A stretch of 64,000 nt of DNA. Origin: Verrucomicrobiota bacterium (GTDB lineage: Bacteria > Verrucomicrobiota > Verrucomicrobiia > Limisphaerales > CANJSG01). Under the pieces are notes generated by a model. It searched no databases, was not told the DNA's origin, and saw only the letters and a program-made list of their open reading frames with translations. The stretch covers positions 78,670 to 142,669 of the forward strand of contig JAYVSO010000125.1 of the NCBI GenBank assembly GCA_043775315.1, in the 5' to 3' direction. This document shows positions 36,858-58,086 of this stretch, piece by piece; position 1 is the first letter of the stretch; every line of letters starts with the position of its first letter. The position numbers were made by a program, and so were the translations under genes.

Positions 36858-37037
36858 AAGCTGCGGAGCAGCGAAAGAAAGTAGCCCACGGCGTGAGCTG
36901 TGGGTTTGGCGTCCGAAGAGAATCAAGCCCTGGAAGGGCGACAGAAGCGCGTCTGCCGCTCCTCCGGAGCTCCTGCGTTCGGCGCGGCGAACCCCGGGCT
37001 CACGCCCGGGGCTGCTGTCTTCCGCTGCTCCGCAGCT
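36858..37037. mobile_element. REPIN-like element copy 1 (inverted REP doublet)
   Basis: Terminal inverted repeats GCTGCGGAGCAGCGAAAGAAAGTAGCCCACGGCGTGAGCTGTGGGT ... GGGCTGCTGTCTTCCGCTGCTCCGCAGC, plus an internal CGGAGGAGCGG / CCGCTCCTCCG hairpin. Confidence 0.7.
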
Positions 37038-43050: not shown

Positions 43051-45174
43051 ATGCAATACCTCATCTACGCCGCCATCGCGTTTGTCGTCCTGATCCCCAT
43101 CGCGATCACGATCGTGCTCTGCATCCGCAAGATCCACCCCGGCAAGGCCGGCATCAGCGTCGGCCTCGGAGGGCTGCGCGTGGCCTTCGACTACATGATC
43201 CGCCTGCCGCTGGTGCAGAACTTCGAGGAGATGGACATCTCCGTGAAGAAGCTGGAGATCCACCGCAAGGGCAAGGACGGCCTCGTCTGCAAGGACAACA
43301 TCCGCGCCGACATCTCCGTGGCCTTCTACATCCGCGTCGAGGCCACCGTGGACAGCGTGAAGAAGGTTTCCCAGATGCTCGGCGTCGAACGCGTGTCCGA
43401 CATGGCCCAGCTCCGCGAGCTGTTCGAGGCCAAGTTCTCCGAGGCGCTCAAGACCGCCGGCAAACAGATGGAGTTCCACGAGCTCTTCACCGAGCGCATC
43501 AAGTTCCGCGAACAGATCCAGGCCACCATCGGCAAGGATCTCGACGGCTTCTTCCTCCAGGACGTGGCGATCGACTACCTGGAGCAGACGCCGCTCGACC
43601 AGCACGACCCCAGCAACGTGCTCGACTCCGAGGGCATCCGGAAGATCACCGAGATCACCCAGCGCGAACGCGTCAGCGCCAACGAATTTTCCCAGCGCGC
43701 GCAGGTCCAGATCGAGAAGGAGAACGCCGACGCCGACATCGCCAAACGCGAACAGCGCCGCCGCAACGAGGAGGACACCGCCAAGCAGACCCGCGCCATC
43801 AACGAGGTGAAGGCCAACGAGGAGGCCGAGGCCCGCAAGGTCATCGAAGGTCGCCGCCAGGAAGTCGAAGGCAAGCGCCTGGAAGCCGACGAATCCATCC
43901 AGTTGCGCACCCAGGACATGAACCGCGCGGTGCAGGAACGGGAGTTCACCGTGAAGAAGGAACGGCAGCGCCTCGAACAGGAGGCTGTGCAGGAAGGCGA
44001 GGAGGCCCGCGTCCGCCGCGAACGCACGGTGTCGCTCGCCGAGATGGACAAGGAAGTGAAGGTCAACGAGGCCGCCGTCGAAGTGGAACGCAAGCGCGCC
44101 ACCGTCGTCTCCGAACAGAAGGCCGTCACCCAGCAGGAGGAGGAGAAGCGCAATATCGAGGCCCGCATGACCGCCGAACGCGTCCGCGAGGTCACGCTCA
44201 TCGAAGCCGAGATGAACGCCAAGAAGGACCAGACCGAGAAGGTCGTCGCCTCCGAGGCCCAGAAGGAAGTCGCGCGTAACGTCGCCGAAGCCGACAAGAT
44301 CCGGACCATCACCGCCGCCGAAGCGGGCCGCGAAGCCGCCTTGCGCGATGCCGAACGCATCCAGACCACCGCAGACGCCGAAGCCAAGGTCGCCGACAAA
44401 CGCCGCCACGCCGCCGAGCAGGAAGCCGAAGGCACCGCCGCCCGCGAAGCCGCCAAAGGCCTCGCCGAAGCCAAGGTCACCATCGCCAAGGCCGGGGCCA
44501 TGAAGATTGAGGCCGCCGCCATCAAGGAGGTTGGTCTCGCCGAAGCCGAGGTCATCAAGGCCAAGGGCATGGTCCAGTCCGAGAACACCCAGACCTTGGC
44601 AGAAGCCGACGCCACCGGCATCGAGGCCCGAGGCACGGCCGAGGCCAAGTCGATCCATCTGAAAGCCGACGCCATGAAGCTGCTCCACGCCGCCGGCCAG
44701 CAGCACGAGGAGTTCAAGCTCCGCCTCGCCAAGGACCGCGACGTCGAACTCGCCGGCATCCACGTCCAGCGCGACGTGGCCCAGGCCAACGCCCAGGTCG
44801 TCTCCGAGGCGCTCAAGACCGCCAAGATCGACATCGTCGGCGGCGAGAACGACTTCTTCGAGAAGATCGTCCGCAGCATCGGCACCGGGAAATCCGTGGA
44901 CCGCATGGTGCAGAACAGCGCCACGCTCACCGACATCAAGGAGACCTTCTTCAACGGCGACCCCGAGCACTTCAAGACCCAGCTCCGCCAGTGGGTCGCC
45001 GACTTCGGGATCAAGACCGAGGATCTGAAGAACCTCACGCTGTCCGCCCTGCTCGCCAAACTCGTCGCCTCCACCGACGACGCGGGAGTGAAGGCCACCA
45101 TCAAGTCCGCCCTCGCGCTGGTGAAGGAGAAGGGAATGGGAGAGGTGAAGGCGGAGACAGTGGTGAAGGCATGA
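43051..45174 (+). CDS. Flotillin family (SPFH/band-7) membrane protein with extended E/A/K-rich coiled-coil
   Basis: N-terminal TM helix, SPFH domain (ISVGLGGLRVAFDYMIRLPLVQN...DNIRADISVAFYIRV), then ~400 aa of EA-repeat coiled coil. Confidence 0.8.
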   Translation: MQYLIYAAIAFVVLIPIAITIVLCIRKIHPGKAGISVGLGGLRVAFDYMIRLPLVQNFEEMDISVKKLEIHRKGKDGLVCKDNIRADISVAFYIRVEATVDSVKKVSQMLGVERVSDMAQLRELFEAKFSEALKTAGKQMEFHELFTERIKFREQIQATIGKDLDGFFLQDVAIDYLEQTPLDQHDPSNVLDSEGIRKITEITQRERVSANEFSQRAQVQIEKENADADIAKREQRRRNEEDTAKQTRAINEVKANEEAEARKVIEGRRQEVEGKRLEADESIQLRTQDMNRAVQEREFTVKKERQRLEQEAVQEGEEARVRRERTVSLAEMDKEVKVNEAAVEVERKRATVVSEQKAVTQQEEEKRNIEARMTAERVREVTLIEAEMNAKKDQTEKVVASEAQKEVARNVAEADKIRTITAAEAGREAALRDAERIQTTADAEAKVADKRRHAAEQEAEGTAAREAAKGLAEAKVTIAKAGAMKIEAAAIKEVGLAEAEVIKAKGMVQSENTQTLAEADATGIEARGTAEAKSIHLKADAMKLLHAAGQQHEEFKLRLAKDRDVELAGIHVQRDVAQANAQVVSEALKTAKIDIVGGENDFFEKIVRSIGTGKSVDRMVQNSATLTDIKETFFNGDPEHFKTQLRQWVADFGIKTEDLKNLTLSALLAKLVASTDDAGVKATIKSALALVKEKGMGEVKAETVVKA

Positions 45175-45215
45175 CGGAGTTCGCCCGCCAAGAAGCCAAG
45201 TGATACAAGTAACCC

Positions 45216-45431
45216 ATGAAAACGATCCACGCGGTCTTTGAGCAGGGCGTCTTTCGTCCTTTGGAAAAGGTCGAGCTTCCGGAAAACACGGAAGTTGAGT
45301 TTGAGCCCCGCACCACCCTTGCGCGCCAACCGATGAAGGAAGGCATGGCCGCCATCTACGCCATTCTGTCCGAACGCTACGAGACCGGCGAAACTGACGT
45401 CGCGGCCCGGCACAACGAGCATCAGCCATGA
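45216..45431 (+). CDS. Type II antitoxin (DUF104/AF2212-like) paired with PIN toxin
   Basis: MKTIHAVFEQGVFRPLEKVELPENTEVEFE. 71 aa. Stop overlaps the PIN gene start (ATGA). Confidence 0.6.
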   Translation: MKTIHAVFEQGVFRPLEKVELPENTEVEFEPRTTLARQPMKEGMAAIYAILSERYETGETDVAARHNEHQP

Positions 45432-45826
45432 CGGTCTTCCTCGATACCATCGGCCTGCTGGCCGTCTGGGACAAGACCGACCAATGGCACACTGCGGCAA
45501 CGGTCAGCCTTGCTGGATTGCAGGCGGCCGGGGCGGAACTGGTCACGAGCGCGTATGTCCTGCTGGAGTGTGGCAATGCCGCCGCCCGTCGGCCGTATCG
45601 CCCGTCGGTCATCCGCTTGAAGCAGCGACTCGAAGCGGAGCGATGCCTGATCTTGCCGACCGAAGAAGATTGGTCTGTCGCTTGGAACGCCTACATCCGC
45701 GGCGAAGCCGACTCGGCTGGCATCGTGGACCAGGTCTCCTTCGCCGTGATGCGGCGGCTGGGGATCGCCACCGTCTTTACCAACGACAGACACTTCCTCG
45801 CCGCCGGATTTGAAACCCTGTTTTGA
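45428..45826 (+). CDS. vapC: PIN-domain toxin (VapC-like ribonuclease)
   Basis: MTVFLDT (first acidic residue), E at ~40, D..., and C-terminal TNDRHF. 132 aa. Confidence 0.8.
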   Translation: MTVFLDTIGLLAVWDKTDQWHTAATVSLAGLQAAGAELVTSAYVLLECGNAAARRPYRPSVIRLKQRLEAERCLILPTEEDWSVAWNAYIRGEADSAGIVDQVSFAVMRRLGIATVFTNDRHFLAAGFETLF

Positions 45827-45844
45827 AATGAAACCTGACCGCTT

Positions 45845-45965
45845 AGTCCTGTTCGCCAGACTCGCCGACGATGCCGACGTGAAATACGCGATCAAGTCCG
45901 CCCTCACGTTGGTGAAGGAGAAGGGAATGGGGGAGGTGGGGGCGAAAAAGGCGTTGGAGAGCTGA
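45845..45965 (+). pseudogene. Duplicated remnant of the flotillin 3' end
   Basis: Encodes LFARLADDADVKYAIKSALTLVKEKGMGEVGAKKALES*, against the flotillin C-terminus LLAKLVASTDDAGVKATIKSALALVKEKGMGEVKAETVVKA*. ~120 bp direct repeat flanking the vapBC cassette. Confidence 0.6.
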
Positions 45966-45998
45966 TCCGCCTGATATTCAGCCCAACCCAGTAACCAA

Positions 45999-46568
45999 AT
46001 GAACAGGTTCCTAGAAAAAGCCTTTCCACCGGACCTTGTTCTATCCCTTGGGCCGATCAGTGATCGCTTGATGGCCCCAAGCAACCTAGACCCGAGCGAC
46101 GTATTTGCCGTCATCGTCGCCTCTGGGCCAATCGAGATCCCCTACAGAATTTACGTTGAACCACTCACTCCCCAAGAGATCGACCATCTCCCCGAAAAAA
46201 TTCGGGGTGCTGTCGCCTGCTGGTTTTCAAGACATCACAACGGGCGAATTCGTGAGGATTTCTTACGAAGCATCACCGCTTATGATTCAGACTGGATTAT
46301 TGGCTACGTGTTGCCACTAAGCGGAGAATATGTTCTCCCAATTTTGGAGTTGATCTGGGACCGACGAGATCGTTTTGACATCTCAGTCCTGAGATCTTGG
46401 CTCAAGAACAACGATTCGTTCTACCATACCGTCAGGCGGCGAGTGGTTAGCTACTGGAATTGTTATCATAGACCAGGGAACCCGGATTTTCGGAAATATG
46501 TCGGCGGTAGACTGATCGATTTTTTTGACGGCTATCGAAAGCCTGCGTGCAACGCAATCTCAGCATGA
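45999..46568 (+). CDS. Hypothetical protein, low-GC orphan
   Basis: 189-aa ORF with markedly lower GC, between vapC and the REPIN/RAYT. No motif recognised. Confidence 0.4.
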   Translation: MNRFLEKAFPPDLVLSLGPISDRLMAPSNLDPSDVFAVIVASGPIEIPYRIYVEPLTPQEIDHLPEKIRGAVACWFSRHHNGRIREDFLRSITAYDSDWIIGYVLPLSGEYVLPILELIWDRRDRFDISVLRSWLKNNDSFYHTVRRRVVSYWNCYHRPGNPDFRKYVGGRLIDFFDGYRKPACNAISA

Positions 46569-46663
46569 AAGGGATTTTCGACAGCCGTATGCAACGCCCC
46601 AACGGGGCACCGCCTTCTAGCCCAGGATTGGCGCAACCGCGCCTACCCTGGGAACGCTTGTCC

Positions 46664-46867
46664 TCAGGCGCGGAGCGCCGAAAGAAAGTAGCCCACAGCG
46701 TGAGCTGTGGGTCCTCGTCCCCATTGATTCCCCAGCCCCGGAGGGGCGACAGAATCCTTCGCGCCAATCCCGCGCTCCGCATTCTTTCGCCCCTCCTGGG
46801 CTCGTCCGATTTCCCATCGCAACCCACGGCTCACGCCGTGGGCTACTTTCTGCCGGTGCTCCGCACC
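46664..46867. mobile_element. REPIN-like element copy 3 (5' flank of RAYT)
   Basis: GGAGCGCCGAAAGAAAGTAGCCCACAGCGTGAGCTGTGGGT ... ACCCACGGCTCACGCCGTGGGCTACTTTCTGCCGGTGCTCCGC. Confidence 0.75.
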
Positions 46868-46937
46868 TATGCACTGAGCCTCTGCCGGAATCACACCGCT
46901 CGACCTAAGATTCACTAGAAATCCGACCTGACCCACC

Positions 46938-47390
46938 ATGCCCCGCACTTACACCCAGCTTCTGAACCACATCGTGTTCAGCACGAAGGAGCGCCGGCCC
47001 ACGCTGACGCCGGAGCTGCGGGCGCGGCTGTTTCCCTACATGGGCGGGATCATCCGGCAGCTCGATGGAGCGGCCTTGCTGATCAACGGGGTCGCGGATC
47101 ACGTCCACATCCTCGCGTCGCTGCCCGCTACGGCGGCGTCTTCGGAGTTTGTCGGCAAGCTGAAGGCGAATTCCTCGAAATGGGTGCATGAGAACTTCCA
47201 GGAACATCGCGCCTTTGCATGGCAGCTCGGATACTCCGCCTTCAGCGTAAGCGTTTCGCAGAAGCAGGGAGTTTTGGACTACATCGCCGGACAGGAAGAA
47301 CACCACCGGAAGGTGTCTTTTCAGGAGGAGCTGATCTCGTTCCTGAAGAAGCACGAGGTCGAATATGACGAACGCTACGTGTTTGAATGA
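46938..47390 (+). CDS. REP-associated tyrosine transposase (RAYT; IS200/IS605 TnpA-like HUH Y1 transposase)
   Basis: 150 aa. HUH motif HVHILASLP, catalytic Tyr region LGYSAFSVS, and N-terminal YTQLLNHIVFSTKERRP typical of TnpA_REP. Flanked on both sides by REPINs. Confidence 0.8.
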   Translation: MPRTYTQLLNHIVFSTKERRPTLTPELRARLFPYMGGIIRQLDGAALLINGVADHVHILASLPATAASSEFVGKLKANSSKWVHENFQEHRAFAWQLGYSAFSVSVSQKQGVLDYIAGQEEHHRKVSFQEELISFLKKHEVEYDERYVFE

Positions 47391-47440
47391 AGATGGACGC
47401 CACCAACGCCATAAGCTCTGAAGCGAACCCATCTAGCCAC

Positions 47441-47634
47441 GGAGCGGCGGCAGACAGTAGCCCACAGCGTGAGCTGTGGGTTCTGATCACCCTGAATCTT
47501 AAGCCCCGGAAGGGCGGCAGAATTGTTCGCACCAATCGAGCTCCGACAGCTCTATCGCCCCTCCGGGGCTCATTCACTTTTGGCAGCCAACCCACAGCTC
47601 GCGCTGTGGGCTACTTTCTTTCGGTGCTCCGCAC
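47441..47634. mobile_element. REPIN-like element copy 4 (3' flank of RAYT, 5' of giant ORF)
   Basis: GGAGCGGCGGCAGACAGTAGCCCACAGCGTGAGCTGTGGGT ... ACCCACAGCTCGCGCTGTGGGCTACTTTCTTTCGGTGCTCCGC. Confidence 0.75.
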
Positions 47635-47690
47635 CTTGGGCCGGCTGCCGACGGTTCGGTCTTTTGACCACCATTTTGCCTCTTTGACCC

Positions 47691-50600
47691 ATGGCTGACC
47701 CCACTCCTCCAGCCCAGCCTTCCGCCACCGCCCCGTCCGCCCTCGTGGGCGCGACCTACGAGATCATCCGGCAACGGCTGGCGACGAACTCGTCCACGTT
47801 GCGCGAGCGCATGGGCAAGCTCGACGCACGGCGGCAGGAGGTCTTCGGGCGGATCGAGTCCAAGCTCCTCCAGGCCGACCGTGTCACCACCGCGCACAAC
47901 TGCATGCCGCGCGACATGGTCCCGCTCGGCCACGGCCGGTTCCTCTTCGCCTTCAACGTCCGGTTCGGCCTCAAGAAGGAGATGGATCTGGCGGATGTCT
48001 TCGCCATCTACCGGCGCGACGAGGCCACGGGCGGGTTCAAGGAGGAGTCGCTGGAGCCGCTCCAGGACAAGCAGTTCGTCACCGACTTCAAGCGCCTCTA
48101 CAACGTCTATGAGAAGACCGCGTTCAGGAAGTTCGCCGTCATCGGCGGGAACCTCTACGCCAAGTTCGGCACCGGCGCGTCGCTCAACGACTACGCCGTC
48201 TTCAAGTGGGCCTTCAACGACGGCAACCTCCGCTACCTCGACGGCCGCTCCGAGGCCGAATACCGCCGCGTCGGCTATCCGCCCACGCACGATTTCCGCT
48301 GGCAAACGCCCGACCGCGAGTCCTACCGCTACGGCGACCATCCGCACGTCTCCATCGCGGAGCGCGTCTTCGTCGAGTGCGTCGGCGGCGACCTCACCAT
48401 CAAGGTCGAGGACAACACCGCCACCGGCGAGGGCATCTATTCGGAGTCCGTGGACGACCGGCACCAGAAGGTGGACGACGCCGAAATCGCCTTCGCGGAG
48501 CTGGACCATCTGATCCTGCTCAAGGTCCGGCCCTACAAGGAAACCGCCGCCCGCTTCTTCATCTTCAACGAGAAGCTCCGCTCCGTCGTGCGCGTGGACT
48601 CCATCGGCGACGCCTGCGTGCGGTTGCCGGAGGAACACGGCCTGATCTTCCCCGACGGCTACTACCTCGGCACCGGCGAGCTGAAGCGTTTCGACGCGAA
48701 GGAAACCGGGCTGATCCTGGAGCGCGTGGTCCATTCGCCCAACGGCGAGGATTCGCTCTACGTCTTCCACGGCCGCGCTTCCGGCGAACACGTCCTGCTG
48801 CCCTACCGGTTGATCGAGCAGAAGGTGGAGGAACGCATCGCCTGCCACGGCTTCGCGCTGTTCCCCAACGGCCAGCTCATCCTCTTCCGCGCGGACGACG
48901 TGCCGCAGAAGCACCACCAGATCCAGCTTCGGCAGACGCCCTTCTACCAACTCGGCTTCGAACCTTCCGGCCAGAAGGACGCCTTCCTCTACCAGGTCGG
49001 CAACAAGGACGTGGTCCGCTGCCTAGCCGAGTGCAACGAGGTGCTGACGCTCGCCGGCAAGGACACGCCCTACGCCGAGCTGTATTCCGACCTCGTGCGC
49101 CGCTGCACCGCGATGCTTGATGCGTATCCGTGGCTCACGAGCCCGGATGGCTTCCAGATCAACGACGCGCTCCAGCAGCTCCGCGAGATCGCGGACAAGG
49201 CGGTGGATGAATTCGCCAAGGTCCGCCGGCTCCAGCACGAGGCCGTGCTGCGCATTGCCGACGTGAAGAAGCGTTGCGAGGAACGGTTCCAGGCCGCGCG
49301 CCGGGCCGCGTTCTCCAAGCTGGAGGACTTCGTCCACAACCTCGCCGCGCTCCGCCATCTCCGCGGCGAACTGATCATCACGCGCGAAGTCCGCTACATC
49401 GATCTCGCCGCTCTCGATACGCTGGAGAAGGCCGTCATCGCACAACTCGCCGAGCTTTCCGCCTTGTGCGTGAAATTTCTGCTGAAGCCCGAGGCGCTCG
49501 AGCCCTACCGCAAGCAGGCCGCCGAACACCTCGCCGCCGTGGACAAGGTCGCGAAGGTCGCCGACGGCCGGAAGTTGGAGAAGGCCGTGGCCGACGCGGG
49601 CGGCGAGCTGGAGATGCTCATCGAGATCGTCAACAGCCTGAAGATCGACGACGCCACCGAGACGACGCGCATCATCGACAGCGTCACGGCCGTCTATTCG
49701 ACGCTCAACCAGGTGAAGGCGGCGCTGAAGAAGCACCTCCAGGCGCTGGTCGCAACAGAAGGCGCGGCCCAGTTCAACGCCCAGCTCAAGCTCCTCGGCC
49801 AGTCCGCCTCCAGCTACCTCGACCTCTGCGACACGCCGGAGAAGTGCGACGAGTATCTCAACCGCCTCACCGTCCAGCTTGAGGAGATGGAGGGCGCGTT
49901 CGCCGGGTTCGACGAATACACCGTCCAGCTTTCCGACCGCCGCACCGAGTTCTACGAAGCCTTCGAGCAGCGGAAGATCGCGCTCGTCGAGCAGCGCAAC
50001 AAACGCGCCGGCGCGCTCCTGACCGCCGCCGAACGCATCCTCAAGGTCATCCAGAACCGCCTCGCCGGGTTCAAGGCGCTGGAGGAGATCCACACCTACA
50101 TGGCGTCGGACCTGATGACGGCGAAGGTCCGCGAAACGATCGAGCAGTTGCTGGAGTTGGGCGATTCGGTGAAGGCCGACGACCTGCAGGGCCGGCTCAA
50201 GACCGTGCAGCAGGACGCGGTGCGGCAGCTCAAGGACAGGCAGGACCTGTTCGTCGATGGCACGTCCGTCATCCAGCTCGGCAAACACAAGTTCAACGTC
50301 AACACCCAGCCGCTGGACCTGACCATCGTCCAACGCGAAGGCCAGCCGCACTTCCACCTGACGAGCACGAAGTATTTCGACCCGATCACCGACACGGACT
50401 ACCTCGCCACGCGGCAGGTCTGGGATCAGGAAGTGATCTCGGAGAACGCCGACGTTTACCGCGCCGAGTATCTCGCGTGGCAGATGATGAACGCTTCCAA
50501 GCTCGAAGACTTCCTCGCCCGCCCCGAGGACCAGCGCCTTGCCGCCGTGCAGGCGTTCATGGCCGCGCGTTACCAGGACGGCTACACCAAGGGCCTCCAC

Positions 50601-53114
50601 GACCTCGACGGCTCGCGCATTTTCTCCGTGCTGGCCGAGACGCATCTCGCCCTGCAACGCGCGCGATTCCGCCCCGAAGCGCGGGCTTGCGCGGTGGTTT
50701 ACTGGAGCCGCTTCTGCCCCGCTGAAACCCGCACGCTCTGGACTGCCAAGCTTGCGGCTTTCGGCGAACGCAACCGGCTCTTCCCCGGCGATCCGGTGCA
50801 GCAGGACTACGTCGCCGCGCTCCAGAAACTCATCGGCGAGTTCCTGAAAACCCAGCCGCTCTATCCCGAGACGCTGTCCGCCGAAGCCGGCGAATACCTG
50901 TTCCACGAGCTGAGCGACGGCGAGACCTTCACCGTCACCCGCGAAGCCGACCACTTTGCCACGGCGTTCCAGCAACACCTCGTCGCCAAGGGCCGCGACG
51001 ACACCTTCGCCGCCGCCCGCGCCGCCTTGAACAGGCATCCTTCCAGCGAGCTGGAACTCGTGCGCGACTGGGTGAAGGGATTCCTGCTTTCGCAGGTGGG
51101 TGCGGCTGCGCTGCGGCCGAACGCCGAGTCGCAGCGCGACTCGGCCCACCACACGTCGCATCTCGAAGAAACCACCGCCATCCTCTTCTGCGGCGACGCC
51201 CTGCCGCGCGCGGCCGTCCATGCCGAATCCCGCCGCGTGCTCGAAGCCATGCGCGGCGCGCATCCGCGCATCGAGGTCAGCCGCTACACCTTCGACTACC
51301 TCGACTTTACCGCGCGCCTGCGCCGTTTCGAGACCGAGGCCGCACCGCGCTTCGAGGCGTATCACCGGATCAAGGGGCAGTTGCTCGACCGCGAACGCAA
51401 GCGGCTCCGGCTCGACGAATTCAAGCCGCGCGTCCTCTCGTCCTTCGTCCGCAACCAGCTCACCGACCGCGTCTATCTCCCGATGGTCGGCGACAACCTC
51501 GCCAAGCAGATCGGCGCGGCCGGCGCGGCCAAGCGGACGGATCTGATGGGCCTGTTGCTCCTCATTTCGCCGCCCGGCTACGGCAAGACCACGCTGCTGG
51601 AATACGTCGCCAGCCGGCTCGGCATCGTCTTCGTGAAGATCAACGGCCCGGCCATCGGCCACGCCGTCACCTCGCTTGATCCCGAGGAGGCGCCCAACGC
51701 CGCCGCCCGCGAGGAGATCTCCAAGCTGAACCTCGCGCTGGAGATGGGCGACAACGCGTTGATCTGCATCGACGACATCCAGCACTGCAACCCGGAGTTC
51801 CTCCAGAAGTTCATCTCCCTCTGCGACGGCCAGCGGAAGATCGAGGGCGTCTGGCGCAAGCAGTCCCGCACCTATGACCTGCGCGGCCGCAAGGTCGTCG
51901 TGGTCATGGCGGGCAATCCCTACACCGAGAGCGGGCTGAAGTTCAAAATCCCCGACATGCTCGCGAACCGCGCCGACACCTACAACCTGGGCGACATCAT
52001 CGGTGGCAACGCCGAATGGTTCCGCGCCAGTTACCTCGAAAACGCCGTCACCTCCAACGCCACCCTCGCCCCGCTCGCCGTCCGCAGCCAGGGCGACATC
52101 CGCGCCTTCATCCGCATGGCCGAGACGGGCCAGCGCACCGCCGAGGGATTGGAGGGAACCTATTCCGCGCAGGAGCTGGACGAAGTGCTCTCCGTGTTGA
52201 AGAAACTCGTCGCCGTCCGCGACGTCGTCATGCGGGTGAACGAGGAATACATCGCCTCCGCCGGCCAGGCCGACGAGTTCCGGACCGAGCCCGCGTTCAA
52301 GCTCCAAGGCTCCTACCGCAACATGAACCGCCTCGCGGAGAAGGTCGTCGCCATCATGGACGACGACGAAGTCCGCGCGCTCGTCGTCGTCCATTACCGG
52401 GGCGAATCCCAGACGCTGACCACCGGGGCCGAGGCGAACCTGCTCCGCTTCAAGGAACTCATCGGCGAACTCAAACCCGACGAAGCCGCGCGTTGGGCGG
52501 ACATCAAGAAGACCTTCAAACGAAACCAGTTCACCCGGGGCGTGGACCCGGGCGATCCAGTCGGCCGCCTGGTGGCCCAGCTCGCGCAGTTCCAGGCCGG
52601 GCTCGAATCTATCCAGACCACGCTCGCCAGCGCCGCCGCGCGGTCGAAGGAACCCGTCGTGCTCGATGTCAGCTCGCTCGGCCAGAGCCTCGAATCGCTC
52701 CGCACCACGCTCGAAGACCGTCTCACCCGCGTCATCGCGGCGACGACCCCTCCCGCCGCCGCGCCTGCCTCGACCGCCGGCCTGGAGAAGATCGGCGCGC
52801 AGCTTGGGGAGGGGTTGAAAGCCTTGGGTGAAGATCTCCGCCGTAACGCCGGCGTCGTCCACGACGCGGCCATCACGGGCAAGATCGACAGCCTCTCGCA
52901 TGAGCTGGAGATGATCCACAGCACCATGGCGTCGTTGAAGGATCTAGCCACGCAGCAGCGCGACCATCTCCGCACCGCCGAGGAACTCCTCGCCACCCGG
53001 GCCAAGCAGGGCACGGTGGAAGTGGAGCTGACGCAGGAGATGCTCAGCAACGAACGCGTATTCATGGAACGCTTCCAACAGGTGCTCGACGACGCGCAGA
53101 AGCCGAAGACGTGA
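47691..53114 (+). CDS. Giant (1807 aa) uncharacterised protein with MoxR/AAA_5-like ATPase module in C-terminal quarter and multiple coiled-coil segments
   Basis: ATG at 47691 follows the REPIN. Continuous ORF with coding-like composition. Walker A ISPPGYGKTT (nt 51576-51593), Walker B ALICIDDIQH, sensor-like VVVMAGNPY. The N-terminal ~480 aa and the middle region have no recognised motif. Coiled coil at ~490-800 and 1650-1800. Confidence 0.7.
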   Translation: MADPTPPAQPSATAPSALVGATYEIIRQRLATNSSTLRERMGKLDARRQEVFGRIESKLLQADRVTTAHNCMPRDMVPLGHGRFLFAFNVRFGLKKEMDLADVFAIYRRDEATGGFKEESLEPLQDKQFVTDFKRLYNVYEKTAFRKFAVIGGNLYAKFGTGASLNDYAVFKWAFNDGNLRYLDGRSEAEYRRVGYPPTHDFRWQTPDRESYRYGDHPHVSIAERVFVECVGGDLTIKVEDNTATGEGIYSESVDDRHQKVDDAEIAFAELDHLILLKVRPYKETAARFFIFNEKLRSVVRVDSIGDACVRLPEEHGLIFPDGYYLGTGELKRFDAKETGLILERVVHSPNGEDSLYVFHGRASGEHVLLPYRLIEQKVEERIACHGFALFPNGQLILFRADDVPQKHHQIQLRQTPFYQLGFEPSGQKDAFLYQVGNKDVVRCLAECNEVLTLAGKDTPYAELYSDLVRRCTAMLDAYPWLTSPDGFQINDALQQLREIADKAVDEFAKVRRLQHEAVLRIADVKKRCEERFQAARRAAFSKLEDFVHNLAALRHLRGELIITREVRYIDLAALDTLEKAVIAQLAELSALCVKFLLKPEALEPYRKQAAEHLAAVDKVAKVADGRKLEKAVADAGGELEMLIEIVNSLKIDDATETTRIIDSVTAVYSTLNQVKAALKKHLQALVATEGAAQFNAQLKLLGQSASSYLDLCDTPEKCDEYLNRLTVQLEEMEGAFAGFDEYTVQLSDRRTEFYEAFEQRKIALVEQRNKRAGALLTAAERILKVIQNRLAGFKALEEIHTYMASDLMTAKVRETIEQLLELGDSVKADDLQGRLKTVQQDAVRQLKDRQDLFVDGTSVIQLGKHKFNVNTQPLDLTIVQREGQPHFHLTSTKYFDPITDTDYLATRQVWDQEVISENADVYRAEYLAWQMMNASKLEDFLARPEDQRLAAVQAFMAARYQDGYTKGLHDLDGSRIFSVLAETHLALQRARFRPEARACAVVYWSRFCPAETRTLWTAKLAAFGERNRLFPGDPVQQDYVAALQKLIGEFLKTQPLYPETLSAEAGEYLFHELSDGETFTVTREADHFATAFQQHLVAKGRDDTFAAARAALNRHPSSELELVRDWVKGFLLSQVGAAALRPNAESQRDSAHHTSHLEETTAILFCGDALPRAAVHAESRRVLEAMRGAHPRIEVSRYTFDYLDFTARLRRFETEAAPRFEAYHRIKGQLLDRERKRLRLDEFKPRVLSSFVRNQLTDRVYLPMVGDNLAKQIGAAGAAKRTDLMGLLLLISPPGYGKTTLLEYVASRLGIVFVKINGPAIGHAVTSLDPEEAPNAAAREEISKLNLALEMGDNALICIDDIQHCNPEFLQKFISLCDGQRKIEGVWRKQSRTYDLRGRKVVVVMAGNPYTESGLKFKIPDMLANRADTYNLGDIIGGNAEWFRASYLENAVTSNATLAPLAVRSQGDIRAFIRMAETGQRTAEGLEGTYSAQELDEVLSVLKKLVAVRDVVMRVNEEYIASAGQADEFRTEPAFKLQGSYRNMNRLAEKVVAIMDDDEVRALVVVHYRGESQTLTTGAEANLLRFKELIGELKPDEAARWADIKKTFKRNQFTRGVDPGDPVGRLVAQLAQFQAGLESIQTTLASAAARSKEPVVLDVSSLGQSLESLRTTLEDRLTRVIAATTPPAAAPASTAGLEKIGAQLGEGLKALGEDLRRNAGVVHDAAITGKIDSLSHELEMIHSTMASLKDLATQQRDHLRTAEELLATRAKQGTVEVELTQEMLSNERVFMERFQQVLDDAQKPKT
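51102..51150. repeat. Compound palindromic element, in-frame inside the giant ORF
   Basis: GCGGCTGCGCTGCGGCCGAACGCCGAGTCGCAGCGCGACTCGGCCCACC, ~42 nt identical to 34386..34434. Translates as AAALRPNAESQRDSAHH. Confidence 0.6.
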
Positions 53115-53182
53115 ACCACGAATGGACACGAATCCATTCCGGGTAGCCGCCGACGCGAGGAGGTGGAGCGCGTTCTTTCTTC

Positions 53183-53394
53183 AGGCGCGGAGCGCCGACA
53201 GAAAGTAGCCCACAGCGTGAGCCGTGGGTCAGCGATGCCCGAAACTCCCCAGCCCCGGAGGGGCGGCAGAAGGTTTCGCTGGCTCCTGGGTCAGCTCGTT
53301 CTTTCGCCCCTCCGGGGCTCGTCCGGTTTCCCATCGCAACCCACGGCTCACGCTGTGGGCTACTTTCTGCCGCGCCTCCGGCGCTTTAACCCCG
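53183..53394. mobile_element. REPIN-like element copy 5 (3' of giant ORF)
   Basis: CAGGCGCGGAGCGCCGACAGAAAGTAGCCCACAGCGTGAGCCGTGGGT ... ACCCACGGCTCACGCTGTGGGCTACTTTCTGCCGCGCCTCC. ~90% identical to copy 3. Confidence 0.75.
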
Positions 53395-53628
53395 CGGGCA
53401 TCCGCAGTCCGGGCCATTTCGTCGTCCCGACTCAGCCGGGCTCATGCAGTTGAAGGCCGAGCCGCGAAGCGGCTGCTCCAGGGTAGGGCAGTGCATCTTG
53501 CCTGCCCACGGCGCTGCCGGCATGGAACCAAACGGTGCGGGCGTATCAGGACATCGGACAGTGCGGATACCCTTGCCAGCACGGGGCAGGCTGGAAGCCC
53601 GCCCTACCTTCTACTGCATGAGTCCGAC

Positions 53629-56600
53629 TCAGAAGTCGTGCTTGTGCTCCTGGGCTCCGGCTTTCGGGAGGTTGGCCACGGGGTTGGCCAGGAGGTAGGC
53701 GTCCACGTCCTTTGTGACGACGAGACGGCCCCACATCATCTGGTAGTGATCGGGGAACGTGCAGACGTATTCGTAGTCACCCGGAGTCGTGGGGGCCGTG
53801 ATCTTGAGGGTCACGCGCTGGCCCGCTTCAATCGACTTGGTTGCGGCCAAGATGTCCGTTGAATCCGGCACGAAAGCCCGGCCGGAACGATCCAGCTTGT
53901 CGGGCGTCATCGTCGCGGAGGCTTTGCCGACGGCCTCGCGGGCACCGGGTTTCACCACGACGAGATTGTGCGGCATGAAGTCGTCGTTCTCGACGATGAT
54001 CTCGAAGGCCTTGCCGGCCTCCACGACGATGCGCGGGGTGTCGTAGCGCATCTGCTCGCGCACGGTGCGGACGACGTAGACGTCGACGCGGTAGGCCTTC
54101 AACTCCTTGCGCAAGGCACCGGCCTGGTCGGCCGGGAGCAATCCGGAAAGGTCGTTCGCCACCTGCACGGTTTCGACGTAATCCTGCGACGTGCGCTGGC
54201 CGACAGGGACCGTCTTGGCCCAGCCGAGCAACGACGTCGCCACGGCGCCGCCGGCCGGCTTGGGCCAGGTGTCACGGGGAAGGGCCCGGATGCCCTGTGC
54301 GGCGGCGACGATCTGCTCGCCCTTGCCGATGAGGCCGCCCAGCGCGGTGAACACGGCAGCGGGCTCGCGGCCCATGCTGACGGCCGCGCGGATCGCGGCG
54401 CGTTGGAGGCTGCCGATGGAGTCGTTGCCGACGGCGAGGGCCACGTTCACATCGGGAGCCGGAACACCTGTCTTGCGGTGGACTTCGCCACGGTTTCCGT
54501 CGAGCACGGTGAGCGTGAAGCCTTCGAGGCGTTTGCCGAGCTCGCCGTCACGGCGGTTCCAGACGGTGATCGAATCGATAGCGTAGTCCGCGCCGAGATC
54601 GAGTTCCCACCAGGGATTCCGCTCGTTCTCGTTCGTGTGGGTCTGGGTGCCGGTGTCCGAGTAGGCCCCTTCGGTGCGGCCGTCGATGGCCCTGGAAGCA
54701 ACGCCGTTGTTGGACGTGCTGGACTGTGTGGCTTTGCCGCCGAGAGCGACGTTCCGGCCACCGCTGGCCACCTGCACTTCGGCCAAGGTCAACGTGCCGC
54801 GGCGGGGAAGTTCGATCCGGACGAAACGACCCTTCGCGCCGGCGTTGGCTTTGGCCGCGGCGACGAGGTCGGCGGGAAGAGCCGAAAGAAGCGGTTTCAC
54901 ACGGTCGTAGGCCTTGCCGCGGATCTCGGGATCCACGATCAGCGGAATGCCGGAGAGCAATTCAGCGAGGGTCGCGGCCGACTTCTCGGCGTCGGCCCAG
55001 ACCTTGTCGAAGCCGCCGTCGGTGGTCACGAGCGTGGCCCAACCGTAGTGCCGGACGGCCGGGGTCCGGCCAGAGGAGGCGAGTTTCGCGAGCCGATCAC
55101 GGAAGGACTTCAGCTCCGTCGCAGGCTGCGTCGGCAGGAGGCTGGCGAGCACCGCGACCGAAGATGCGTCCGCCGCATCGATCGACGCGAAGAGTTCGGT
55201 GAGCCGGGTGGATTTGCGGATCTTGGCCAAGCCGTCGAGGGCTTCGATACGGTCGTTGGCCGACGCGTCAGCCCGCTTGAGGATGCCGGCAAGGACGTTC
55301 TCGGTCTTCGGCACCTTGAGCAGTTCGGGCGTGGTCAATCCGCCGACGAGGTAGTTCAAGCCGGCCGGGTTGCCCGAGCTGATCGGCTTTCCCGACGCGA
55401 TGGCCTTGCGCCAGACGGGATCCAACTGGCGGAGCGTCTCCTTCAGCGTGTAGTCGAGGTAGTAGTCGGTCGGGGACTTCAACGCGGCCAACGCGACGTC
55501 GGCGGCTTCGGAGACGTTGAAGAAGCTCGCGGCGCGGACGGCTTCAAGACGGACGCGCGGATGGGCGTCTTCGGCGAGTTTGCCGAAAAGCGAGAGGGCA
55601 TCGGGCACACGGTCGCGCCAGTAGCAGAGCACGCGGGCCGCAGCGGCGCGCGCCCGGTAGTCGGACGAGGTGAGCATCCGGTTGAGGAATCCGGCATCGA
55701 CGCTGTTGTGCCACTGGTGGACCCACAGGGCCTCCATCATCTGGTGCTCATACTCCTTGTCGGACTTGTCCAAGCTGGAGGCCCACTTCTTGGTCGCGGC
55801 GATGACCTTGGCGCTGTCGTGTTTGGAAAGCTCCACCTTGGCGAGTTCGCGAACGCCGTTCTCCGGCTCCTTCAGAAGTTCGAGCAACGCTTCGACCGGC
55901 TGGCCGTCGATCTTCTTCGGCGTCAGCAGCGGGCGGCCCTCGTAGGTGATGCGATAGATGCGGCCAAGTCCCACGGCGCGGTTTGGGTCGCGGAGGTGGT
56001 GTTGCAAGTGGCCGATGATCGTGTTGTGCCAATCGGTGAAGTAGAGTGCGCCGTCGGGTCCGGTGCTGATCGACGAGGGACGGAAGTTCGGGTCGCTGGA
56101 GGAAACCAGATTCTCGAGAGTCTCCCCCTTCAGGCCGGAGCCTTCCTCGTCGACCTTCACGCGGAAGATGCCCTGGAAGCCGATGACATTCAGGTTGAGG
56201 AAATTCCCCTGGAACTCGTCGGGGAAGTGACGGCTGGAGATGATGCCGGTGCCAGGACAGGGCCGCGACGGGCGGTTCCAAAACTCCTTCATGCCGGCGT
56301 GCTTCGCCGGGTAGTCGATGCGTCCACTGAAGGCCGCGCCGAAGTAGGTGTTGTTGCCCGTGGCGTCGGTCACGAAGTCATTGCCCCAGCGGTCGAAGAC
56401 GCGGCCATGGGGATTCGCGAAGCCGTAGGAGATGTAGGTCTCGAACTTCGCGGTCAACGGCTCGTAGCGGTAGATGGCGGCGTCGTTGTTGCGGACGGGG
56501 CCGCTGGCGGTCTCGACCTGCGTGCGGTGGAAGACACCGTCGCTGAGATAGATCGCGCCGCCGGGGTCATGGCAGATGGCGTTCGCCGTGTGGTGCGAGT

Positions 56601-58086
56601 CGGCCGAGTCCATGCCCATGAGCACGCGCTCGCGGGTGTCGGCCTTGCCGTCGCCATTGGTATCACGGACGAACCACACGTCCGGAGCCTGCACGACGAG
56701 CACGCCGTCCTTGTGGAACTGGAAGCCGGTCGGGGCGTTCAAGTCGTCGAGGAACTTGGTCATCTTGTCGGCCTTGCCGTCGCCATCCGTGTCCTCGAAG
56801 ACGAGGAGGCTGTCGCCCTCCTTGCTCCAGGGCGTGCGTTCGGGGTAGTTGCGCCACACGGCGACCCAGAGGCGGCCCTTGGCATCCCAGGCCGATTGGA
56901 CCGGGTTGATGAGTTCGGGGAACTGTTTCTCGTCGGCGAAGAGGTTCACCTTCATGCCGGAGTGGATGGTCATCTTGGCGATCGCTTCCTGGCCGTTGAG
57001 GAAGACATGCGAACCATCTTCCTTCGGACCGGGCTTGTTGGTTGGAACCGGAGCGACGGGCGGAAGGTTGTCATCGATCACGACCAGGTCGCCGCCGCCA
57101 GCCACGGCCCAGACGCGCTTCTCGCGATTGGCCGTCATGACATCGCGCACGGCCATCTCCTGTTGCATGACCTTGTAGTTGGACGTGTAGGGCGCGGGCG
57201 CCTGCCGGTCCGAAATGGAACCGCCCTTGCCCGGAAGATACGCCATGGCGGAACGGCCGCCGTAGACGTTGTAGCCGTCGATCGTGCGGTAGCGGGAATG
57301 CCACATCGCGTTCTTCTCGTTGATGGCGGTGCGGAGCTTTTCGAAACTGGAGGAGGGGCCTTCCGCGCCGGACGCCGGAGCGGCTTCACCGACGAGCCCC
57401 TGGTAGATGACGGACGCGAGGGCCTTGTCACCGGCCTCGCCGAGGAGAAACCCATTGATCGTGAGCGACGCGCCCTGGGCGGCAGCGGCGGCGTAAAGCT
57501 GCTGGCTGGGCTTGAACAGGCCGATGAAGGGAACGCCGTTCGCCTTGGCGACTTCAGCCATCGCGGCCGAATACAGAACAAGGTTGGCGTTGGCCGGAGC
57601 GGGATCGGCGAAGTTCGAGTCGCGATGCTTCTCGGCGGCGATGGGCGAGAAGAGGACGATCCGAGGCGAACCTTTGCCGGAATAGTTCTTCGCCTTCGAC
57701 TCCTTGATCCACTTGTCGAGATCCGCCCGGAACTTCACCAGACCAGCCTCACCCTGGAACGATTCGTTGTAGCCGAAGAACGCGAGGATCACGTCGGCCT
57801 TGACCCGGGTGAGCCAATCGTCGGGCGTTCCGAAATTCTCCGAACGATGCCGCGTGACCACTTCATCGCCAGACGCGGCGAGATTGCGGAAGACGAGTTG
57901 GTGCTTGGGGAATTTGGTCAGGAGCAGCGTCTCCAGATAGCCGGTGTGCTGCATCCGGTCGGGCAAGGCATTGCCGATGAGGGCGACGTGATCGCCGGCA
58001 TTCAGGGTGATCGCCGCCGAGGACTGCCCGTGTGCCGGCCGGACCAAGGTCAGGGCGACCAGGAGTGAGAGGATGAAGATGCGCAT
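53629..58086 (-). CDS. Secreted 1485-aa multidomain protein: SGNH-hydrolase-like N-terminus, glucose/sorbosone-dehydrogenase-type beta-propeller, HEAT repeats, F5/8 type C (discoidin) domain and C-terminal cupredoxin (azurin-like) domain
   Basis: Signal peptide MRIFILSLLVALTLVRPAHG. NPWWELDLGADYAIDSITVWNRRDGELGKRLEGFTL (discoidin). C-terminal GDYEYVCTFPDHYQMMWGRLVV matches the azurin/plastocyanin Cu site (C, H, M). Confidence 0.7.
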   Translation of the reverse strand: MRIFILSLLVALTLVRPAHGQSSAAITLNAGDHVALIGNALPDRMQHTGYLETLLLTKFPKHQLVFRNLAASGDEVVTRHRSENFGTPDDWLTRVKADVILAFFGYNESFQGEAGLVKFRADLDKWIKESKAKNYSGKGSPRIVLFSPIAAEKHRDSNFADPAPANANLVLYSAAMAEVAKANGVPFIGLFKPSQQLYAAAAAQGASLTINGFLLGEAGDKALASVIYQGLVGEAAPASGAEGPSSSFEKLRTAINEKNAMWHSRYRTIDGYNVYGGRSAMAYLPGKGGSISDRQAPAPYTSNYKVMQQEMAVRDVMTANREKRVWAVAGGGDLVVIDDNLPPVAPVPTNKPGPKEDGSHVFLNGQEAIAKMTIHSGMKVNLFADEKQFPELINPVQSAWDAKGRLWVAVWRNYPERTPWSKEGDSLLVFEDTDGDGKADKMTKFLDDLNAPTGFQFHKDGVLVVQAPDVWFVRDTNGDGKADTRERVLMGMDSADSHHTANAICHDPGGAIYLSDGVFHRTQVETASGPVRNNDAAIYRYEPLTAKFETYISYGFANPHGRVFDRWGNDFVTDATGNNTYFGAAFSGRIDYPAKHAGMKEFWNRPSRPCPGTGIISSRHFPDEFQGNFLNLNVIGFQGIFRVKVDEEGSGLKGETLENLVSSSDPNFRPSSISTGPDGALYFTDWHNTIIGHLQHHLRDPNRAVGLGRIYRITYEGRPLLTPKKIDGQPVEALLELLKEPENGVRELAKVELSKHDSAKVIAATKKWASSLDKSDKEYEHQMMEALWVHQWHNSVDAGFLNRMLTSSDYRARAAAARVLCYWRDRVPDALSLFGKLAEDAHPRVRLEAVRAASFFNVSEAADVALAALKSPTDYYLDYTLKETLRQLDPVWRKAIASGKPISSGNPAGLNYLVGGLTTPELLKVPKTENVLAGILKRADASANDRIEALDGLAKIRKSTRLTELFASIDAADASSVAVLASLLPTQPATELKSFRDRLAKLASSGRTPAVRHYGWATLVTTDGGFDKVWADAEKSAATLAELLSGIPLIVDPEIRGKAYDRVKPLLSALPADLVAAAKANAGAKGRFVRIELPRRGTLTLAEVQVASGGRNVALGGKATQSSTSNNGVASRAIDGRTEGAYSDTGTQTHTNENERNPWWELDLGADYAIDSITVWNRRDGELGKRLEGFTLTVLDGNRGEVHRKTGVPAPDVNVALAVGNDSIGSLQRAAIRAAVSMGREPAAVFTALGGLIGKGEQIVAAAQGIRALPRDTWPKPAGGAVATSLLGWAKTVPVGQRTSQDYVETVQVANDLSGLLPADQAGALRKELKAYRVDVYVVRTVREQMRYDTPRIVVEAGKAFEIIVENDDFMPHNLVVVKPGAREAVGKASATMTPDKLDRSGRAFVPDSTDILAATKSIEAGQRVTLKITAPTTPGDYEYVCTFPDHYQMMWGRLVVTKDVDAYLLANPVANLPKAGAQEHKHDF

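Follow-up and report, generated by a model that had tools for sequence, protein, structure and literature searches.

The 64,000-nucleotide stretch of DNA from a Verrucomicrobiota bacterium analyzed here (contig JAYVSO010000125.1, positions 78,670 to 142,669; hereafter the window) carries on its forward strand a giant ATPase gene at positions 47691–53114 and, upstream of it at 43051–45174 (+), a gene for a flotillin-like protein of the SPFH family. The end of the SPFH gene and the start of the ATPase gene are separated by 2517 nt containing a vapBC-like toxin-antitoxin pair, a low-GC orphan open reading frame (ORF), and a REP-associated tyrosine transposase (RAYT) gene, all three in accord with an earlier note on this DNA that placed a flotillin gene 2.5 kb upstream. 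That note regarded the ATPase as an unrecognized single-gene module. The analysis presented here indicates instead that the ATPase is an intact, ordinary member of the catalogued DUF3686 family of giant ATPases and the last gene of a conserved operon of two to six genes.

The giant ATPase gene and its family

The 5.4-kb single ORF reported earlier is an uninterrupted ATG-to-stop reading frame of 1807 codons. A long ORF alone is little proof of a gene here because DNA of 65% GC gives a long antisense ORF as well, in this case one of 1298 codons at 49023–52919. Comparison with relatives identifies 2020 homologs at E ≤ 1e-10 among the scored candidates, and with residues 1–1200 as query, 1.84 billion cluster representatives searched exhaustively yield 417 clusters at 50% identity with E ≤ 1e-30, in which collinear single matches cover residues ∼20–1135. 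Full-length relatives comprise 1600–1930 residues, and each aligns in one collinear match, down to ∼26% identity. This collinear full-length homology indicates that the ORF is a real gene, neither a fusion nor an assembly artifact, and excludes the artifactual fusion against which the earlier note had cautioned.

An AAA module was the only part of the protein recognized in that note. The Pfam profile PF12458 (DUF3686) matches residues 37–479 essentially end to end (profile positions 2–447 of 448; E = 4.6e-164, 546.6 bits against a cut-off of 25), and PF25472 (DUF7902) matches residues 601–683 (E = 1.5e-23, 83.2 bits against a cut-off of 26), in addition to the AAA (30.5 bits, cut-off 21.2) and AAA_5 (28.0 bits) profiles, both of which exceed their gathering scores at residues 1289–1412. 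The same set of Pfam matches, in the same domain order, is precomputed for nearly all of the 240 ATPase homologs listed, and NCBI names the family product “DNA repair ATPase”; the protein is thus catalogued in both resources. Scanning the ATPase against NCBIfam gives sub-threshold P-loop matches only, and sequence searches of the PDB with the whole ATPase or a profile of its AAA region give only Walker A similarity to p97 and RuvB. No transmembrane (TM) segment, protease domain, MIT domain, or VWA domain was found in the giant ATPase. The family also has a full-length member in a eukaryotic proteome collection (eukprot P0350, 1711 residues, 50% identity to the ATPase of the window), which could be a contamination or a genuine transfer into a eukaryote.

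Domain architecture of the ATPase

Two AlphaFold2 (AF2) models were built from a 55-sequence alignment (38–94% identity), one covering residues 1–860 with a mean predicted local distance difference test score (pLDDT) of 85.4 and the other covering residues 840–1640 with a mean pLDDT of 87.2 and a predicted template modeling score of 0.76. Fold searches with these models, as proposed in the earlier note, yield a propeller, a spectrin-like rod, and a MoxR-type AAA+ module. The DUF3686 region (47799–49127 (+), residues 37–479) is modeled as an N-terminal helix, extending over residues 17–52, followed by a ∼7-bladed β-propeller at residues 58–415, within which 27–28 β-strands are counted, a number that fits seven four-stranded blades. 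The top Foldseek matches of the N-terminal model in the PDB are all β-propeller proteins (E = 1e-6 to 1e-4), including prolyl-oligopeptidase propellers, the clathrin terminal domain, WD40 proteins, and IFT proteins. Long helices at residues 430–853 (48978–50249 (+)) form a rod of three-helix bundles resembling spectrin repeats, for which the fold search returns spectrin-repeat matches, and DUF7902 (49491–49739 (+)) lies inside this rod. The middle region (50268–51410 (+), residues 860–1240) is composed of a β-barrel at residues 860–898, a helical domain at residues 925–1170, a small β unit, and a long linker helix; the fold search with the helical domain gives no specific match, and the middle region is without a known relative.

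A single MoxR-class AAA+ module with its lid occupies residues 1250–1640 (51438–52610 (+)). The motifs GYGKTT, ICIDD, and VVMAGNPY quoted in the earlier note are present inside the AAA and AAA_5 matches: the first belongs to the Walker A sequence SPPGYGKTT at residues 1293–1301, the second to ICIDDIQH at residues 1358–1365, in which DDIQH at 1361–1365 is the Walker B motif, and the third spans residues 1404–1411. The module also has a sensor-1 residue, N1409, and a candidate arginine finger, R1427. A 24-sequence alignment at 30–48% identity shows no variation at G1296, K1299-T1300-T1301, D1361-D1362, N1409, or R1427, indicating that the ATPase site is under selection. The best structural matches of the module are the MoxR proteins CbbQ and NorQ, at 13–14% sequence identity, followed by midasin and dynein, which bears out the MoxR/AAA_5 class proposed earlier. 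The AAA_5 match and the MoxR-like fold are shared with the MoxR family (CbbQ, NorQ, RavA); however, MoxR proteins are ∼270–500 residues long, whereas the module in the window sits in a chain of 1807 residues, and midasin and dynein contain six AAA modules in contrast to the one present here. The protein ends in a coiled-coil and low-complexity tail (52611–53111 (+), residues 1641–1807) that is specific to the lineage, as judged from length and coverage differences: the alignment consensus stops near residue 1640, and the ∼170-residue tail is missing from the ∼1610- to 1660-residue members of Bacteroidota and Clostridia.

The SPFH partner gene

The 707-residue product of the upstream gene is composed of an N-terminal hydrophobic or TM segment, an SPFH (Band_7) domain, and a long coiled coil rich in E, A, and K. 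The Band_7 domain is detected at residues 27–172 (E = 1.4e-10, 41.9 bits against a cut-off of 23.6) when the N-terminal 233 residues are scanned alone, and a Pfam scan of the whole protein gives no match, probably because of the long E/A/K-rich tail; the N-terminal fragment of an orthologue at another locus (L065), likewise scanned alone, scores 59.2 bits. Orthologues 73–88% identical to the SPFH protein are encoded directly upstream of the ATPase in three verrucomicrobial relatives (L001–L003). An NCBIfam scan of the SPFH protein yields nothing meaningful, the FloT model NF058507 appearing at E = 9.4. Because neither this equivalog nor the Pfam Flot domain (PF15975) is detected, the protein is referred to here as a flotillin-like SPFH protein and not as a demonstrated flotillin.

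A conserved operon across bacteria

In a scan of one genome per species, at least 584 genomes contain a relative of the ATPase, and 80 of these loci, from Verrucomicrobiota, Planctomycetota, Bacteroidota, Desulfobacterota, Clostridia, and Fibrobacterota, were compared. ORFs were called around each ATPase gene and clustered across loci. A gene for an SPFH protein of ∼700 residues lies immediately upstream of the ATPase gene on the same strand in 65 of the 67 loci with at least 2.6 kb of upstream sequence, in six phyla. The median gap between the two genes is 141 nt, and in many loci of Clostridia and Planctomycetota it is −10 to +30 nt. A gene for a YqiJ/NfeD-like protein of ∼225 residues with multiple TM segments in turn precedes the SPFH gene in 51 of 63 loci. 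Fifteen of the 53 members of this cluster match Pfam YqiJ_N (best E = 3.6e-8), the sole PDB match of its profile is a weak one to Bacillus subtilis YuaF (E = 0.09), and NCBI labels the Hymenobacter copy DUF1449. These observations establish the ATPase gene as the last gene of a conserved operon of two to six genes with the core [YqiJ/NfeD-like]-[TM-SPFH]-[giant ATPase], and not as the single-gene module of the earlier note. The link to flotillin made there, on the other hand, is clearly upheld by the synteny, the lack of which the note had named as a refutation. That the ATPase belongs to the DUF3686 family and to this operon, taken together, can be regarded as nearly certain.

Bacteroidota and some Proteobacteria extend the operon with a CesT-like chaperone and PspA, a member of the ESCRT-III superfamily. 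A PspA/IM30 gene (PF04012, E = 6.5e-35) is found in 16 and a CesT-like gene (CesT_Tir_1, PF22550, E = 1.4e-52) in 14 of the 22 Bacteroidota loci, and among the 80 sampled genome loci these genes occur in Bacteroidota only. A divergently oriented regulator with a helix-turn-helix (HTH) domain (HTH_3, E = 4.9e-11) and an S24-like, LexA-family-like portion (Peptidase_S24, E = 0.002, below the cut-off) is present at 13 loci, all of Bacteroidota. The flanks outside the operon are not conserved, as 145 sampled ORFs match 146 Pfam families, each of which occurs in at most two ORFs, indicating that the functional signal comes from the operon itself.

The operon has already been described by comparative genomics in PMC11237479 (mSystems 2024, preprint 2020), which reports operons of CesT/Tir and PspA with three further genes, YqiJ/YuaF among them, finds abbreviated operons of a band-7 protein, YqiJ/YuaF, and sometimes the ATPase to be more widely distributed, and proposes a role of the CesT/Tir-PspA-flotillin-AAA+ operon in membrane dynamics. 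The present operon is equated with the published one, for which a Dokdonia locus is cited, because the architecture and the gene order match in other Flavobacteriaceae. In both, the ATPase comprises a β-propeller, a helical or coiled-coil region, and a C-terminal AAA+ module, the upstream partner is a TM-Band_7-coiled-coil protein, and Bacteroidota homologs keep the published gene order including the divergent regulator with HTH and protease domains. In contrast, the window has only the abbreviated pair, interrupted by 2.5 kb of insertions. Literature searches under the names of the family found nothing, and a paper on SPFH proteins of Pseudomonas aeruginosa does not mention the ATPase.

Relatives in a plasmid collection belong to Pseudomonas, Proteus, Vibrio, Photobacterium, Halomonas, Streptomyces, Nonomuraea, and Deinococcus; the 13 records carrying the ATPase are mostly megaplasmids, chromids, or mislabelled chromosomes. 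By depositor annotation, the plasmid of P. fluorescens SBW25 (NC_009444.1, 84455–105335; L084) carries in order YjfI, PspA, rhomboid, DUF2491, DUF350, DUF1190, a glutathionylspermidine-synthase-like gene, a hypothetical gene, SPFH, and “DNA repair ATPase.” Here the SPFH-ATPase pair and an entire yjf-type cluster are fused on one megaplasmid, whose host is genetically tractable, an arrangement that unites two PspA operon classes kept separate in PMC11237479. The annotated order on a Hymenobacter plasmid is a divergent LexA-family regulator, Tir chaperone, PspA, DUF1449, a hypothetical gene, and “DNA repair ATPase.”

No homologs of YqiJ, PspA, the CesT-like protein, or the regulator were found in the 64 kb of the window, and the ten verrucomicrobial relatives L001–L010 are likewise without the YqiJ-like gene. 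The window represents the reduced SPFH-plus-ATPase form of its verrucomicrobial subclade, from which the NfeD-like gene has been lost. In seven of these relatives a protein of ∼265–290 residues is encoded right after the ATPase (13540–14334 in L001, 13644–14453 in L002, and also in L005 and L007–L010). A coiled coil at its N-terminus is followed by a conserved middle domain and a low-complexity tail; it belongs to no Pfam family, and in L002 only gives a weak match to PspA_IM30 (E = 9e-4). This protein could be a lineage-specific fourth component; a search of the window found no gene for it, and it is missing from L004 as well.

Insertions between the SPFH and ATPase genes

In L001 the gap between the SPFH and ATPase genes is about 19–25 nt, as compared with 2517 nt in the window, where the pair has been pushed apart by 2.5 kb of secondary, small selfish insertions. 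Comparison with L004, the closest relative, whose ATPase is 96% identical, distinguishes two layers of insertion. The first is the vapBC-like cassette (45216–45826 (+)), consisting of an AF2212-like antitoxin at 45216–45431 (PF01954, E = 1.5e-9) and a PIN toxin at 45428–45826 (PF01850, E = 2.5e-9), which is common to the window and L004 and is not present in L001–L003. It is flanked by two copies of the SPFH 3′ end, duplicated over ∼95–140 nt, an arrangement also common to the window and L004. The relic second copy at 45865–45959 (+), displaced by the vapBC insertion, is a direct repeat of 45074–45168 at 78% identity and can still be translated into a flotillin C-terminus closed by a stop codon of its own, the relic ending in DADVKYAIKSALTLVKEKGMGEVGAKKALES and the live SPFH protein in DAGVKATIKSALALVKEKGMGEVKAETVVKA, each followed by the stop. 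The vapBC insertion apparently supplied or re-created a substitute 3′ end, by which the SPFH gene stayed intact.

The second layer is the block 45953–47686, which comprises the orphan ORF, a REPIN (an inverted doublet of repetitive extragenic palindromic, REP, elements), the RAYT gene, and another REPIN, and in whose place L004 has 376 bp. The orphan ORF (45999–46568 (+), 189 residues) has a GC content of 0.496 as compared with ∼0.65 around it and no match in Pfam, NCBIfam, or PADLOC; it is a putative gene and part of a recent insertion. The RAYT gene (46938–47390 (+)) encodes an IS200-like Y1 transposase of 150 residues (PF01797, E = 2.7e-22), and a RAYT 70% identical to it occupies the same intergenic position between the SPFH and ATPase genes in L002 (6689–7993). 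Since the inserted genes are all on the + strand, read-through transcription into the ATPase gene is still possible. A scan for sigma-70 promoters over 42.7–53.8 kb found none and is uninformative for this phylum.

Small selfish genes have landed repeatedly, in different lineages, in this otherwise short spacer (45175–47690 in the window). PD-(D/E)XK_3 (PDDEXK_3) genes are found in it in several Verrucomicrobiota (L023, L034, L074, L083) and DUF559 (Vsr-like) genes in Bacteroidota (L027, L029, L030, L077), and even the window and L004, with their 96%-identical ATPases, differ in it.

REPINs and the downstream region

REPIN doublets exist on both sides of the ATPase gene, as the earlier note had observed, although its conclusion that they delimit the ORF does not hold. 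REPIN 1 (46661–46868) lies upstream of the RAYT gene, REPIN 2 (47430–47636) between the RAYT gene and the ATPase start, and REPIN 3 (53178–53385) downstream of the ATPase stop. Two of the three doublets, REPINs 1 and 2, therefore flank the RAYT gene, forming a REPIN-RAYT system that is a neighbor and no part of the ATPase system. The 25-mer REP core occurs in eight copies in the window, where none is expected, as the three doublets and two singletons, the latter in other intergenic regions at 36881 and 39671. L004 shares the downstream REPIN and is without the upstream orphan-REPIN-RAYT-REPIN block. This pattern and the scattered REP copies indicate that the REPINs belong to the RAYT and to the general intergenic REP population and not to the ATPase unit, so that their bracketing of the ORF is incidental.

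All six REP arms, 46666–46711 (−), 46823–46868 (+), 47435–47480 (−), 47591–47636 (+), 53183–53228 (−), and 53340–53385 (+), exceed the gathering score of the Rfam family RF01687, “Acido-Lenti-1 RNA” (44–56 bits against 37). The Acido-Lenti-1 motif appears in PMC2864571 among candidate small RNAs, from Acidobacteria and Lentisphaerae. In this verrucomicrobial genome RF01687 behaves as the repeat of which the REPIN doublets around the RAYT are built, and these data suggest that it is a REP element rather than a small RNA gene.

Beyond REPIN 3, an element of ∼200 bp at 53431–53632 is bounded by 26-nt inverted repeats with 85% complementarity (CTCAGCCGGGCTCATGCAGTTGAAGG and CCTTCTACTGCATGAGTCCGACTCAG). 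L004 lacks nearly the whole of it, 53436–53623, at the equivalent site, and it could be an insertion resembling a miniature inverted-repeat transposable element (MITE). The convergent downstream neighbor at 53629–58086 (−) encodes a protein of 1485 residues with GDSL-like lipase, DUF7133, HEAT-repeat, F5/8 type C, and cupredoxin domains. It is unrelated to the ATPase module, and its position is conserved in L004.

Proposed function

MoxR ATPases are hexameric remodeling chaperones, and one of them, RavA, docks on the cage-like LdcI. The characterized MoxR ATPases CbbQ, NorQ, and RavA act with a VWA partner.

The partner proteins have a background of their own in the literature, according to which SPFH proteins form large membrane-attached cages, some of which enclose or recruit AAA+ machines, as in HflK/C-FtsH, and NfeD proteins co-assemble with SPFH partners. 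PspA is described there as a membrane-repair polymer of the ESCRT-III superfamily that a Bacillus SPFH protein helps to recruit; in B. subtilis, YdjI recruits PspA. In most lineages the present operon resembles the classical NfeD-SPFH operons (Escherichia coli yqiJK, B. subtilis yuaF-floT, QmcA-YbbJ) in having a YqiJ/YuaF-like gene followed by an SPFH gene; it differs from them in its third gene, the ATPase, and in an SPFH partner that is longer (∼700 residues) and without a detectable Flot domain. The resemblance to HflK/C-FtsH and Vps4-ESCRT-III/PspA, in which an AAA+ ATPase is likewise linked genetically to an oligomeric scaffold at the membrane (an SPFH cage or an ESCRT-III/PspA polymer), is one of analogy only. 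FtsH and Vps4, however, are of the classical AAA+ clade and not MoxR-like, and the ATPase of the window lacks a protease domain, an MIT domain, and a TM segment.

The most probable function, favored with moderate confidence, would be ATP-driven remodeling of flotillin-like and PspA membrane scaffolds by the giant ATPase. The AAA+ modules would assemble in the cytoplasm into a MoxR-like hexameric ring, from which the propeller and the rod may reach and bind the cytoplasmic face of an oligomeric SPFH/flotillin cage and, where PspA is present, may also engage its polymers. ATP hydrolysis might then assemble, disassemble, or remodel the scaffolds, or extract clients from them, during envelope stress. 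The proposed analogs are Vps4 acting on ESCRT-III, FtsH inside the HflK/C cage, and RavA docking on the LdcI cage. The suggestion of a membrane-microdomain-associated machine made in the earlier note, in view of the SPFH synteny at 65 of 67 loci, remains the best reading. A more specific version, which might be called a Vps4 for flotillin, is tentative and somewhat less likely to be correct than not: the DUF3686 ATPase could be a dedicated motor of megadalton scale for SPFH cages and PspA/ESCRT-III polymers, gripping the scaffold with its propeller and spectrin-like rod while ATP drives assembly, disassembly, or membrane repair. The literature searched yielded no ATP-dependent remodeler of flotillin assemblies.

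Several observations weigh against scaffold remodeling. Throughout the family the Walker B motif is D-D (D1361-D1362) and departs from the canonical hhhhDE, which makes the rate of hydrolysis uncertain. A VWA partner, as expected of MoxR ATPases, is seen neither among the conserved neighbor clusters nor among the 25 commonest of the 146 flanking Pfam families. On the side of the partner, scans of C-terminal fragments bring up no Pfam Flot match at E ≤ 0.1, and sequence profiles of the SPFH protein detect no SPFH relatives in the PDB. The window itself has no YqiJ, PspA, or CesT-like gene, and the + strand REP hairpin of REPIN 2 at 47591–47620, just upstream of the ATPase gene, scores as terminator-like, which together with the 2.5-kb gap makes co-expression of the SPFH and ATPase genes uncertain in this organism. 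The literature searched contains no experimental work on any ATPase of the DUF3686 family, and the interaction with the SPFH protein, the formation of hexamers, and the substrate proposed above all derive from gene order and analogy of fold.

Alternative explanations

The main rival of scaffold remodeling is a MoxR-type maturation chaperone, in which the AAA+ ring would act on some membrane protein complex, either by activating it or by inserting a cofactor, with flotillin serving only as the assembly platform, in the form of its cage, and the propeller and rod binding the client. The closest structural relatives of the AAA module, CbbQ (a Rubisco activase) and NorQ, speak for this explanation, as does the view of flotillins as platforms or chaperones for membrane-protein assembly found in PMC11237479 and PMC11222466. 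It is nevertheless considered unlikely, because the operon has neither a VWA/MIDAS partner nor a conserved candidate client gene near it, and its sole conserved neighbors are scaffold and remodeling proteins (SPFH, YqiJ, PspA, and the CesT-like protein). Less likely still is defense against phages or mobile elements, in line with the defense-type NTPase of the earlier note, in which a giant sensor ATPase would trigger SPFH- or PspA-like membrane effectors on infection. A large multi-domain NTPase with a propeller as possible sensor, located in the window among a toxin-antitoxin pair and transposon-like elements and found elsewhere on megaplasmids, would suit such a role. At most nine of the 145 flanking ORFs match PADLOC at E ≤ 1e-10, mostly in generic candidate families and in a count with crude ORF calling and no background control that shows no obvious enrichment, and the ATPase itself has a weak, sub-threshold match to PADLOC mad8 (E = 0.001, 16.7 bits). 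However, PADLOC (v2) gives no significant match for the ATPase and none for the SPFH protein, the vapBC pair, the orphan, or the downstream gene of the relatives; searches of 50,697 phage genomes and of IMG/VR contigs give no relative of the ATPase; and the mobile genes of the window are lineage-specific insertions missing from relatives. The flanks of the 80 loci are heterogeneous and mostly of metabolic and transport families, with no conserved defense neighbors, and the partners within the operon are envelope-stress genes.

The function in DNA repair implied by the databases is very improbable. Apart from the Pfam description of DUF3686 and the NCBI product name, it could draw on weak local similarity over the P-loop region of RuvB (E of about 1e-4 to 1e-5) and on the LexA-family-like HTH and S24 regulator divergent from the operon in Bacteroidota. 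The RuvB similarity, however, is confined to the Walker A stretch at residues ∼1266–1325 of a module whose fold is MoxR-like, and with the RuvB equivalog models the protein reaches 23.4 and 20.2 bits, where the cut-offs are 282 and 299. The protein has no family-level match to a repair protein and no DNA-binding or nuclease domain, and no evidence was found behind the name. The explanation with the least to recommend it is that the ATPase is a REPIN-bracketed mobile or recently acquired single-gene cassette that lies next to the flotillin gene by chance, as the REPIN copies within 60–70 nt of both ends of the ORF might suggest. The GC content of the ATPase gene (0.657) is equal to that of the SPFH gene (0.646) and of the surroundings, synteny across phyla marks the SPFH-ATPase pair as ancestral, the upstream REPIN is part of the RAYT insertion, which is missing from L004, and further REP copies occur in intergenic regions elsewhere in the window. 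The synteny data effectively refute the cassette.

Implications

The gene in the window is itself an ordinary orthologue in a catalogued family and would not surprise a specialist. The catalogued family is uncharacterized, so that the homology of the whole protein to a characterized family, which would have refuted the finding according to the earlier note, is present only in a weak sense. The name “DNA repair ATPase” finds no support in the sequence, the fold, or the gene context and probably misleads, since the consistent context of the DUF3686 family is membrane scaffolding and envelope stress. Tractable carriers are available in Proteus mirabilis, Vibrio campbellii, Hymenobacter, Flavobacteriaceae, and, on its plasmid, P. 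fluorescens SBW25, and the domain map offers testable constructs and point mutants at K1299, D1361/D1362, and R1427. The large, conserved, flotillin-coupled family thus forms a well-defined target for research on bacterial flotillins and PspA; it has been described computationally and poses a testable problem in bacterial membrane biology. If the ATPase should prove to be a Vps4 for flotillin, it would constitute a new class of membrane-remodeling machine in at least 584 species genomes.

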